Notes: generated by a model from the sequence alone, not told the origin. A stretch of 37,786 nucleotides of DNA from Patescibacteria group bacterium (GCA_004322365.1 SCTS01000007.1:84266-122051), one strand, 5' to 3'. Shown: positions 4,749-11,817, counted from the stretch's first letter. Program-made: numbers and translations.

Positions 4749-4752
<4 letters not shown>
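4359..4752. repeat. Three related GCAC-N4-GTGC hairpins plus duplicated tRNA 3' end
   Basis: Hairpins at 4359-4384, 4538-4589 and 4708-4752; GTGCGCCCGCCTGGGCTCG is identical at 4585-4603 and 4748-4766. Confidence 0.8.
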
Positions 4753-4821
<69 letters not shown>

Positions 4822-8870: not shown

Positions 8871-10544
8871 ATGGCACAAACTGACGACACCGATAATCGA
8901 CTTAAAGAGCTCCAACTTCGAGAAGAAGAGGAGCTCGCCCTCATCCTCTCGCACAGGTATAACATTCGATATCTCGACCTGACGCGCGTCTCAATTAATT
9001 CTGACGCACTCCGACTCATAGAAGAACCTGTAGCTCGTCTCGCTGAAATCGCAGGCTTTGACATTGTAGGTAAAAAACTAACCATCGCTGTTCGCTCACC
9101 ACAACATCCTAAATTGCCTGCAATCCTTGAAGACTTAGAGAAGCGCGGATACACAGTAGAACAGGTGTTGGTATCGCGCGCATCCTTAGCGAGAGCTTGG
9201 GAGCACTACAAAGATCTTTCATTTGCCGTTGAATCAAAGCAGGGCGTTTTAGATGTCTCCCCAACGGAGCTGAAAAAAGTACTTGAAAGTATTCATACGA
9301 TTGAGGATATCCAAAAAGCAGTCGCCAGTGTTACTGAAATGAAACGAGCCTACCGTGTTTCAAAAATTCTGGAAGTAGTACTCGCCGGAGCATTTGCAGT
9401 TGACGCATCGGACATTCACATCGAACCTGAACAAAATCAGGTGCGCTTGCGCTATCGCCTTGACGGTGTGTTGCATGATGTCATTAACTTTGACCTCGAT
9501 ACAGCAAATCTTCTCTTGTCACGACTAAAACTTCTTTCTGGTCTTAAACTGAATCTAAAAAATCGTCCACAGGATGGCAGATTCAGCCTTGTTATGGATG
9601 CAAAAGAGATTGAGATTCGTGCTTCCGTTATTCCTGGTGCGTACGGTGAGACTGTCGTGATGCGCCTCTTAAATCCCGACACCATTTCCGTTCCATTTGA
9701 AGCTTTGGGTATGGAGCCAAAATTGCGAGCACTTATTGAGCGCGAAATTGGTAATCCAAATGGCATGCTTTTAAATACAGGACCTACAGGAAGCGGTAAA
9801 ACAACCACGCTGTATGCGTGCATGAAAAAAATTAATTCTTCAGAAATTAAAATTATTACCATTGAAGACCCTGTGGAATACCATGTTGCCGGATTGGTGC
9901 AGACACAGGTGGATGAAAAAAACTACACATTCCTTCAAGGGCTCCGCTCCGCACTCCGTCAAGATCCCGATGTCATCATGATCGGAGAAATCCGCGATGA
10001 AGAAGTCGCAAAAACGGCAATCGACGCGGCGCTTACGGGACACTTCGTATTTTCAACACTCCATACCAACGATGCTGCAGGGTCCTTCCCTCGACTTGTT
10101 GATCTTGGTGTGGATCCAAAAGTATTTGGTTCCGCAATCAATATCGCCATGGCACAGCGCTTAGTAAGAGTCTTATGTAAGCAATGCAAAAAAGAAGTCC
10201 CTCTTGAAGGTAAGAACAAAGAGCGTGTTGATAAAGTGCTCGCAGGTCTTCGAGATAAGACGGCCATCCCCGCTGACATTTCCAAAGTATTTGAGCCTGC
10301 TGGGTGCTCTGTCTGCAACAACACTGGATTCAAGGGCCGTATTGGTGTTTTTGAGGCAGTCGTTATTGATAGCGAGATGGATGCACTTCTTCGCACTTCC
10401 CCTTCAGAACATGAAATACAGGCACTCCAGCATAAAAAAGAAATACTAACGATGGTTGAGGACGGCATCATGAAAGTCTTAACTGGAGTTACTTCACTTG
10501 ATGAACTAAATCGGGTTGTCTTAATCGAAGAAACACTCAAATAA
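8871..10544 (+). CDS. pilB: Type IV pilus / type II secretion assembly ATPase (PilB/GspE family)
   Basis: ASDIHIEP, PQDGR, GPTGSGKTTT, TIEDPVE, LRQDPDVIMIGEIRD, STLHTN, two CxxC motifs. Confidence 0.9.
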   Translation: MAQTDDTDNRLKELQLREEEELALILSHRYNIRYLDLTRVSINSDALRLIEEPVARLAEIAGFDIVGKKLTIAVRSPQHPKLPAILEDLEKRGYTVEQVLVSRASLARAWEHYKDLSFAVESKQGVLDVSPTELKKVLESIHTIEDIQKAVASVTEMKRAYRVSKILEVVLAGAFAVDASDIHIEPEQNQVRLRYRLDGVLHDVINFDLDTANLLLSRLKLLSGLKLNLKNRPQDGRFSLVMDAKEIEIRASVIPGAYGETVVMRLLNPDTISVPFEALGMEPKLRALIEREIGNPNGMLLNTGPTGSGKTTTLYACMKKINSSEIKIITIEDPVEYHVAGLVQTQVDEKNYTFLQGLRSALRQDPDVIMIGEIRDEEVAKTAIDAALTGHFVFSTLHTNDAAGSFPRLVDLGVDPKVFGSAINIAMAQRLVRVLCKQCKKEVPLEGKNKERVDKVLAGLRDKTAIPADISKVFEPAGCSVCNNTGFKGRIGVFEAVVIDSEMDALLRTSPSEHEIQALQHKKEILTMVEDGIMKVLTGVTSLDELNRVVLIEETLK

Positions 10545-10580
10545 ACAAAAAACCCGAGGATGACCTCGGGTTTTTTGTTT
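10543..10580. terminator. Bidirectional intrinsic terminator
   Basis: AAACAAAAAA CCCGAGG ATGA CCTCGGG TTTTTTGTTT. Confidence 0.88.
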
Positions 10581-10757
10581 CGTGCCAAAATAAAAAATCG
10601 CACCCCTCTAAACAACGCTTGCAGTGAAGGTGGAACAAATGATGAGGAGACTCCCAGAGAATAACCGAGGTCAGACTTCCAGCAGATCCTTACAATGATG
10701 CCACGGCGTTGCTTAGATGGGCACGATTTTTTAGAATAAAACCCCTTTCGGGGTTAC
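10545..10757 (-). ncRNA. Candidate ~200-nt structured non-coding RNA, family unknown
   Basis: Upstream promoter on the minus strand, 5' GAAA-tetraloop hairpin, 28-bp stem with G-U pairs, terminator, no ATG ORF; ends are approximate. Confidence 0.55.
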
Positions 10758-10763
10758 AATGGT

Positions 10764-10792
10764 ACGATAGCATACGCTTTTATATATGTCAA
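10764..10792 (-). promoter_or_regulatory. Sigma70-type promoter pointing away from ruvB
   Basis: TTGACA (10792-10787), 17-nt spacer ending in TGC, then TATCGT (10769-10764). Confidence 0.65.
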
Positions 10793-11817
10793 GTACTCAA
10801 TCAAAGAAGATTCATTCTGAGGAAGAGGGGCCAAAAGAAGCTGGGGAACGCGTCCTAGACCAAACTCTACGACCGGAGGCTTGGGAGGAATACGTGGGAC
10901 AAGAAAATGTAAAGGAAAACCTCCGCGTACTTATAGCAGCTGCGAGAGAAAGAAACCATGCGCCTGAACACACACTCCTCTATGGTCCTCCTGGGCTTGG
11001 GAAAACAACCCTGGCACACCTTGTGGCGAAAGAGCTTGGTGCAAACATGCGAGCAACGGCAGGGCCTGTTATTGAGCGCGTAGGTGACCTCGCTGCAATT
11101 CTCACCAACTTAGAGCCTGGGGATGTATTGTTTATCGATGAGATACACAGGCTCAATAAAACAATCGAGGAAGTTCTCTACCCCGCCATGGAAGCTGGGA
11201 AGCTGGATATCATTATCGGTAAAGGTCCGTCAGCTCGCACTATTGAGCTAGCACTTCCCTCTTTCACACTCGTTGGTGCAACGACACGCATAGGACTTAT
11301 TTCTGCACCACTTCGTTCTCGTTTTTCAGGCGGAGTATTCCAACTTGATTTTTATTCTGAAAAAGAAATTGAACGAATTCTTGCTCGTTCTGCAAAAATT
11401 CTTGGCATTGAAGCCGATGTCGATGCTCTTCAAGAGATTGCAAAACGCTCTAGAAAAACTCCACGTACTGCAAACTACCTTCTAAAACGCTCCCGTGATG
11501 TTGCACAGCTCGACCGCACAACACTCTCAAAAGTAGCGGCAGAAAAAGCACTCGCCATGATTGGCATAGACACAGCTGGACTTACTCCGTCAGACAGGCG
11601 CATTCTTGAGGCGCTCATAACAAAATTCGCAGGGGGTCCCGTGGGTGTAAAAACTCTTGCAGCTGCTGCAGCCGAAGACGAACAAACTATTGAGGATGTC
11701 TATGAGCCGTATTTAATGCAGGAAGGATTTTTGGAACGCACTCCGCGAGGTCGCATCGTTACAGCTCGCGCACGCGAGCATTTAGGAAAACAAGGTGTAC
11801 AAAAAAAACTTATATGA
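10786..11817 (+). CDS. ruvB: Holliday junction branch migration helicase RuvB
   Basis: [46 protein letters not shown]. Confidence 0.98.

Follow-up and report, generated by a model that had tools for sequence, protein, structure and literature searches.

Bacterial RNAs that are widely conserved, strongly structured and provided with promoters of their own are rare, and those whose function has been solved have usually proved to be machines or regulators of central importance, among them 6S RNA, the RNA of the signal recognition particle (SRP), tmRNA and RNase P RNA. The RNA gene described here lies on the minus strand between a pilB-like gene and ruvB in a Patescibacteria genome of 787 kb, assembled in 8 contigs and scored as 100% complete. 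The window, that is, the whole stretch of 37,786 nucleotides that was analysed, corresponds to G000:C6:84266-122051, and the names of the records matched by the core sequence pattern of the RNA agree with the Patescibacteria affiliation.

The closest described system is 6S RNA (SsrS, RF00013), which resembles the ruvB-side RNA in size (~170-200 nt), in its stand-alone gene with a strong promoter, in the long closing stem that joins both ends, in the long apical stem and in a hairpin placed 3' of the centre. Short CCAC/CCCA motifs are also common to both. However, the centre of 6S RNA is an open bubble, whereas that of the ruvB-side family is a tight four-way junction, and the ruvB-side RNA shows neither a match to the 6S models nor the signature GGGAGC ... 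GCACCCACCUGG that the Rfam consensus places at the base of the terminal stem (absent from 10587-10757). A divergent 6S RNA is, in addition, encoded elsewhere in the same genome. The raiA motif RNA and OLE RNA, two orphan structured bacterial RNAs that came out of comparative genomics and are both in Rfam, share with the ruvB-side RNA a conserved sequence, a covarying structure, a lineage-restricted occurrence, a noncoding nature and a function unknown at discovery. The ruvB-side RNA has no sequence or model similarity to either of them, belongs to another lineage (Paceibacteria) and, unlike them, constitutes a complete predicted transcription unit, promoter and terminator included, whose place on the chromosome is fixed. 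GadY of E. coli is a cis-encoded antisense RNA, and RNAs of this type, located where genes start or end, are comparable in that they lie on the strand opposite to two genes and occupy promoter and terminator space in common with them; the ruvB-side RNA, in contrast, barely overlaps coding sequences and has an elaborate conserved fold that is not needed for antisense action.

Two further assignments were rejected. Y RNA (YrlA) with Ro/Rsr shows a similar long end-to-end stem and a cloverleaf-like multi-helix domain, but the genome has no TROVE (Ro) protein (PF05731) and the ruvB-side RNA has no Rfam match and no rsr neighbour. SRP RNA is recognized by a conserved apical GNRA tetraloop and Ffh-binding loops; its models (RF00169 and RF01854) gave no match in the region, nor in the genome at E ≤ 10, and the apical hairpin of the ruvB-side RNA is variable, with UUCG/CUCG/CUUG-type loops and not a conserved GNRA.

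When the whole window was compared with Rfam 15 at gathering score, the sole match was a tRNA gene (4749-4821, minus strand). At E ≤ 10 the source copy of the ruvB-side RNA gave terminator-type partial matches only, none of them on the body of the RNA, and at E ≤ 0.1 the 20 other members that were searched gave only three sub-threshold matches, all at their 3' terminator ends. An earlier note on this DNA, made from the sequence alone, had considered that the RNA may be a new class, and the results for the source copy and the 20 members agree with this view. The ruvB-side RNA would thus be a member of a family outside Rfam 15 that appears, as far as it can be detected, to be specific to the Paceibacteria (Parcubacteria). 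No paper was found in the literature on an RNA beside ruvB or on structured RNAs of bacteria of the Candidate Phyla Radiation (CPR), nor was one found on 6S RNA in this radiation; the portions available of PMC8321541, PMC11383801 and PMC10768705 contain nothing bearing on the ruvB-side RNA. New here are the coexistence of a divergent 6S RNA in the genome, the exclusion of SRP RNA and Y RNA, the reduced architecture of the RNA in the source genus and the occurrence of one member outside the class in another context.

The RNA gene and its neighbours

The RNA gene is convergent with a pilB-like gene for a type IV pilus ATPase (8871..10544, plus strand; Pfam T2SSE, E = 7.7e-116) and divergent from ruvB (10786..11817, plus strand; Pfam RuvB_N, E = 3.2e-73), which is followed downstream by a MazG-like gene and then by ruvC. 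Its promoter is composed of the -35 hexamer TTGACA (10787..10792, minus strand), whose complement overlaps the ruvB ATG at 10786, and of an extended -10 element, TG-C-TATCGT (10764..10772, minus strand), located by a promoter scan. The near-consensus arrangement that the earlier note had read here, TTGACA-17-TATCGT with TG before the -10 on the minus strand (10792..10764), is indeed present, is of sigma-70 type and matches the consensus at 10 of 12 positions. This is the sole promoter-like site in 10200-11200, although shuffled sequences hold 1.0 on average and the site is not significant by itself. Among relatives, 25/27 members from the genus and 58/94 from the class have an exact TTGACA-N16-18-TAnnnT upstream of the RNA, compared with 0/27 and 1/94, respectively, when the reverse complement of the same regions was taken as control; the extended form, TG-n-TAnnnT, is present in 25/27 and 55/94. 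In the alignment of relatives, conservation begins exactly at the -35 hexamer and stops at the U-run past the 3' arm of the closing stem.

Judging from the position of the -10 element, the RNA would start near 10757. Its 3' end is predicted within the U-run 10597-10587, most likely near 10587, because homology stops at this U-run after the 3' arm and the second hairpin that lies beyond is missing in 9 of 12 sequences. The predicted RNA (10587..10757, minus strand) corresponds to the match of the covariance model R1, built from 12 sequences, at G000:C6:94852-95022, where homology in relatives ends, and it measures ~171 nt instead of the ~200 nt that had been proposed. A run of at least four T is found at the 3' end in all 27 genus members and in 66 of 94 class members, and the closing stem together with the U-run would make up the RNA's own terminator.

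The second hairpin (10543..10580) is a perfect 17-bp hairpin revealed by an inverted-repeat search, to which terminator-bearing Rfam models align on both strands. It can act bidirectionally because an A-run and a T-run flank it, and only three of the 12 aligned sequences have it, those of the source genome and of the two relatives nearest to it. This predicted terminator probably ends pilB or backs up termination of the RNA. The intrinsic terminator of the earlier note therefore exists, but the RNA likely ends before reaching it, near 10587.

No ATG-initiated open reading frame of at least 30 amino acids occurs on the minus strand within 10545-10792, in line with the noncoding character given to the region before. 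The locus shows the features by which a small RNA gene is generally recognized, namely its own predicted promoter and intrinsic terminator signals and a conserved position and strand, and the proposal of a stand-alone noncoding RNA gene on the minus strand finds support in the promoter, the U-run, the strand and the covariation of the family (see below), all of them sequence-based predictions. In the segment 9800-11500 of the window no match was obtained among the indexed RNA runs, in an index that covers near-identical words only. A 223-nt contig of run X20, which is guessed to be an RNA run, covers 10587-10795 at a depth of 3.6; it was not counted as a transcript since it spans the promoter, and it looks like DNA of a relative.

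The position of the RNA gene is itself conserved. A ruvB-like gene lies upstream and on the opposite strand in 26 of the 31 RNA loci from genus and order, and a pilB-like gene lies downstream in convergent orientation in 28 of them; among the 26 loci of the class search the two figures are 23/26 and 23/26. Such a tight synteny (23-28 of 26-31 loci per neighbour across the class) could reflect a link in cis to ruvB or pilB. The RNA gene would then be a cis element of the pilB-ruvB locus, working as an antisense RNA and as a bidirectional terminator or insulator, and it would set the expression of ruvB (and ruvC) or pilB either through occlusion of a promoter or through pairing with pilB read-through or with the 5' leader of ruvB. 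The overlap of the -35 hexamer with the ruvB start is in agreement with this explanation, as is the possibility of termination on both strands offered by the A and U runs that flank the closing stem. Likewise, the promoter scan of 10200-11200 revealed no sigma-70-like plus-strand promoter for ruvB, and ruvB transcripts may because of this cross the RNA gene in antisense. However, conservation in the RNA is highest in the internal loops, the tandem G-U pairs and the four-way junction, none of which an antisense RNA or a terminator needs. Moreover, the RNA survives the loss of each neighbour, being kept without ruvB in 5/31 loci and without pilB in 3/31, one member (in genome G351) is found in an unrelated context, and the source genome has a separate terminator for pilB. 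A cis element is thus considered unlikely, and we infer that the RNA gene owes its place between these two genes to the inheritance of gene order and not to a function in cis; this order could be held by the back-to-back promoters and the shared terminator space. The overlap of the RNA gene with either coding sequence is minimal, only the -35 hexamer touching the start codon of ruvB.

Some additional observations concern the start of ruvB. Its start codon and the -35 hexamer of the RNA promoter, which belong to opposite strands, overlap within 10786-10792 of the window, and no Shine-Dalgarno sequence is visible 5' of the gene by inspection of the sequence. A candidate ruvB promoter inside the RNA gene, picked out by eye on the plus strand (TTGCTT-17-TAGAAT), was rejected: it fails the scan criteria and its -10 is unconserved in relatives.

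Fold in the source genus and consensus of the family

The minus strand folds with a minimum free energy of -96.5 kcal/mol (z = -8.6), a value that none of 200 shuffled sequences reached. At its 5' end stands the hairpin AACCCC-GAAA-GGGGTT (AACCCCGAAAGGGGTT; 10740..10755, minus strand), with 6 pairs and a 4-nt loop, exactly as described in the earlier reading, followed by a U-rich linker (10739-10734, minus strand). Of the 12 genus sequences, 10-12 preserve its three central pairs, and a compensatory change is seen once. As a feature of the whole family this hairpin was discarded, since the leaders have a median z of -0.43 and a fold at -5 kcal/mol or below in 24 of 54 cases; it is a feature of the genus.

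The closing stem, P1, is formed by a 5' arm (10706..10733, minus strand), which includes the inner helix found across the family, here AUCUAAGCAAC, and by a 3' arm (GCGUUGUUUAGAGGGGUGCGAUUUUUUA; 10591..10618, minus strand) that is continued by the U-run to 10587. The arms of this inverted repeat are 28 nt long and 86% complementary, with 87 nt between them, which corresponds to the 28-bp stem of the first description. The four mismatches of P1 on the minus strand are U-G, G-U, G-U and A.G, so that three of the four are indeed converted into wobble pairs, as had been noticed.

P1 encloses an inner rod (10627..10704, minus strand) composed of P2, P3, P4 and an apical hairpin. In P2, GUGG (10704-10701) would pair with CCAC (10633-10630), and there is no variation within the genus and hence no covariation at this place. 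P3 is formed by AGGA (10690-10687) and UCCU (10648-10645), and P4 by CUGCUGG (10685-10679) and CUGGGAG (10657-10651), the latter helix containing a near-invariant tandem U-G/G-U. The top of the rod is the apical hairpin UGAC-CUCG-GUUA (10673-10662), variable in sequence; all of these elements are read on the minus strand. Towards the 3' arm of P1, the short stretch 10619..10629 (CUUCACUGCAA, minus strand) would be, from its place in the alignment, a remnant of the hairpin P5 of other genera. In the source genus the hairpin P1a is missing, P5 is cut to a few nucleotides and the centre looks looser in the pair table than in the family consensus. The source genus thus appears to have lost or shrunk the two side hairpins that other genera possess.

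In the consensus of the family, a closing stem of ~27 bp clamps the 5' and 3' ends, with the U-run placed directly after it. The inner part of P1 is conserved in sequence and yet covaries (CUCYARGCAA / UUGCYURGAG), and in most genera the 5' arm is followed by the hairpin P1a. The rod P2-P3-P4 holds a near-invariant module, AGGAC-N3-CUGG / CUGG-N3-UAUCCU, in which a 1x2 internal loop is combined with a covarying step of 3 bp and with the tandem U-G/G-U, whereas the apical hairpin is variable in sequence and carries stable tetraloops of the UUCG/CUCG/CUUG type. P5 is in most other genera an 8-bp hairpin, ACUUUUGGU-RCCCAY-AUUAAAAG. With the two added side hairpins, the RNA of most genera is modelled as a four-way junction whose linkers measure 1-3 nt.

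This structure was evaluated on two alignments. In 37 sequences from genus and order, 92.3% of the cells of the 38 proposed pairs are paired, compared with 75.0% in shuffles and 39-52% when the partners are slid, and changes on both sides are seen in 27/38 pairs; none of 500 shuffles reached any of these measures. In 95 sequences, comprising the class and pattern sets and aligned to the covariance model R2 (built from the 37 sequences), which biases the result towards P1, P3 and P4, 86.2% of the cells are paired against 73.3% in shuffles, with both-side changes in 45/57 pairs. By helix, P1 is paired in 96.3% of the cells (both-side changes in 18/23 pairs), P3/P4 in 91.6% (7/13), P5, which lies outside the model, in 82.6% (7/8), and P2, in the register aligned here, in 61.3% (11/11). 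The covarying homologues near ruvB that the earlier note had named as a check do therefore exist. The alignment A2, in which sense and antisense matches are mixed, was left out of these counts.

The same pairs indicate which strand is selected. G-U/U-G combinations fill 180 cells of the 38 pairs and A-C/C-A combinations 23 (117 and 22, respectively, without the invariant tandem), and because the former far outnumber the latter, and given the orientation of the promoter, the selected strand is the minus strand of the window. The argument for selection at the RNA level that had been drawn from the G-U pairs of one stem is in this way extended to the family. A functional plus strand, serving ruvB as a riboswitch or structured 5' leader or pilB as a 3' untranslated region, would fit with the location of the element directly upstream of ruvB and with the good fold of that strand (z = -6.9), but given these counts many of its pairs would be mismatches, the promoter and the U-run show conservation in the minus orientation alone, and R1 scores 89-181 bits in sense against 28-44 bits in antisense, a contrast only partly independent since R1 derives from sense-strand sequences. 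This explanation is, in consequence, very improbable. A DNA cruciform acting as substrate of RuvAB was rejected as well, the strand-asymmetric G-U pairs pointing to selection at the RNA level.

Distribution of the family

The source genome has one full-length copy of the element; six other matches are weak, measure at most 42 nt and correspond mostly to the terminator hairpin. A BLASTN search of 24 further genomes of the genus recovered the element from 12. R1 gave one sense match each in 28/33 genus genomes, and among the 27 with a completeness of 90% or more the figure is 24. In the sample of the order, 24/151 genomes have a full-length R1 match. In that of the class, the wider model R2 matched 45/151 genomes, representing 38 of 123 genera, and left 106/151 without a match under strict filters; much of the class may lack the family or may carry copies that have diverged beyond detection. 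Searches spanning more than 40 genomes were run under these strict filters, so that absences are weak evidence, and the E-values from R1-R3 are rough on account of a shortened calibration. In the sample of the phylum, the three R2 matches among 151 genomes belong to the source genome, to another genome of the same genus and to G351, a genome of another class.

A search by sequence pattern (CTCTARGCAA...AGGAC-N3-YTGG...CTGG-N3-YATCC) returned at least 120 species-representative records. Among the matches listed are Paceibacterota, Nomurabacteria, Parcubacteria, Zambryskibacteria, Taylorbacteria and Minisyncoccia, and many of those listed carry the generic label 'uncultured Saccharibacteria'. 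A shorter core pattern matched 5 of 401 phylum genomes, with no match for the backwards control: two genomes of the own order, G351, and the genomes G368 and G397, whose N3/N3 pairing is poor and whose matches may be due to chance. The member in G351 (L269:1454-1627, minus strand, equivalent to G351:C1:215281-215454) is the only convincing one outside the class. It keeps the core module, a P1 of 19 bp and the U-run, and is flanked by a VanW-like gene and a fragment of an IS110-family transposase instead of ruvB and pilB.

These data also bear on a possible mobile origin, in which the RNA would be the relic or cargo of a mobile element, that is, a MITE with terminal inverted repeats or the guide RNA of an IS110-type element. 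The long inverted arms are what such repeats look like, and the sole member outside the class lies ~900 nt from the transposase fragment. However, the element occurs once per genome and at the same chromosomal site across the class, its stems covary, which transposon repeats do not need, and the core pattern has 0 matches in viral contigs. The multi-copy MITE that the earlier note had put forward as a refutation was specifically discarded, there being one full-length copy in the source genome and one sense match per relative. A mobile element is the least credible of the explanations considered here, with hardly any probability left to it.

An RNA and its fold are thus kept across a large class of ultra-small, host-dependent and uncultured bacteria. 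The models R1 and R2, the consensus structure, the core pattern and the fixed address would allow its annotation in thousands of CPR genomes and its search in metatranscriptomes.

Proposed function, a coexisting 6S RNA and the signal recognition particle

The ruvB-side RNA is best explained, and we think rather probably, as a stand-alone, structured and stable noncoding RNA of ~171 nt that acts in trans, belongs to a family of the Paceibacteria outside Rfam and binds protein. Action in trans is suggested because either neighbour can be missing and because the G351 member has an unrelated context. Such an RNA would be abundant and resistant to nucleases, and it may serve as a ribonucleoprotein scaffold or as a decoy; protein binding is proposed from the invariant nucleotides only, and the protein would recognize the invariant module with its internal loop and the inner portion of P1, where sequence is conserved.

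A different function would correspond to a second, very divergent paralogue of 6S type, which would mimic open promoter DNA and sequester the RNA polymerase holoenzyme. Two such RNAs in one bacterium have a precedent in B. subtilis, which has 6S-1 and 6S-2. The size is right, the closing and apical stems are long and the promoter is strong and looks constitutive. In the source genus the centre could open into loops of ~15 nt on the 5' side and ~27 nt on the 3' side if the GUGG/CCAC pairing were unformed, and the CCACCU on the 3' side, together with the RCCCAY loop of P5 in other genera, recalls the 6S consensus CCCACCU. Against this, the Rfam 15 models for 6S RNA gave no match in 10450-10900 at E ≤ 10, nor in the 20 members at E ≤ 0.1. 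In the family consensus, linkers of 1-3 nt join the four central helices into a tight junction, in which P5 is 82.6% paired and covarying. The signature GGGAGC...GCACCCACCUGGA is missing here and present in another RNA of the same genome. A 6S paralogue is accordingly held to be rather unlikely, and the 6S-like character suggested by the earlier note finds no support in view of the missing Rfam match, the junction and the separate RNA that bears the signature.

This other RNA, a divergent 6S RNA, is encoded outside the window (G000:C5:201097-201269, minus strand, equivalent to L028:1501-1673, minus strand). Its full-length alignment with RF00013 scores 19.7 bits, short of the gathering score of 46.4 (E = 0.025 in the search of the genome), and the RNA carries GGGAGC ... 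GCACCCACCUGGA, folds with z = -7.3 and has a TG-extended -10 upstream. Weak 6S matches were seen in 8/33 genus genomes, the source genome included. A model built on this RNA (R3) detected divergent 6S RNA in 27 of 151 class genomes, 13 of which also have an R2 match. With a 6S RNA already encoded in this genome, the ruvB-side RNA is not simply the missing 6S RNA of the group.

Returning to a protein-bound RNA acting in trans, a more specific proposal is that it forms the core of a new housekeeping ribonucleoprotein that takes over a basic task of the cell in a lineage where no SRP was detected. The internal-loop module would then bind a dedicated protein, for instance for the handling of nascent membrane or pilus proteins. 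This proposal is quite improbable as it stands. SRP RNA was found neither in the source genome nor, at E ≤ 1, in any of the 33 genus genomes. The SRP54-type GTPase domain of Ffh and FtsY (PF00448) is over its cut-off in 0/33 genus genomes, 2/151 class genomes and 1/151 phylum genomes, all of these being short partial P-loop matches of 24-26 bits. In the source genome there is no match to PF02978 (the M domain of Ffh), PF00448 or TIGR00959, and a six-frame scan for the G1/G3/G4 motifs returned only UvrA and a peroxiredoxin-like open reading frame. The positive control SecY is present in the source genome (E = 2.8e-101), and the control genomes were positive in 14/14 cases. SRP annotations for CPR genomes exist; no paper was found in the literature reporting the absence of SRP in Patescibacteria. 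In the part available of PMC10768705, the ftsY and SRP genes bear APY09_ tags and are discussed as genes of the host (XH001). If the absence of SRP is true, a whole phylum would lack a near-universal system.

Two other RNAs were located on the same contig as the divergent 6S RNA. The RNase P RNA (G000:C5:119862-120247, minus strand) is divergent, scoring 83.3 bits against a gathering score of 100 for the bacterial type-A model, and the tmRNA (C5:196756-197150, plus strand) scores 99.3 bits, above its cut-off.
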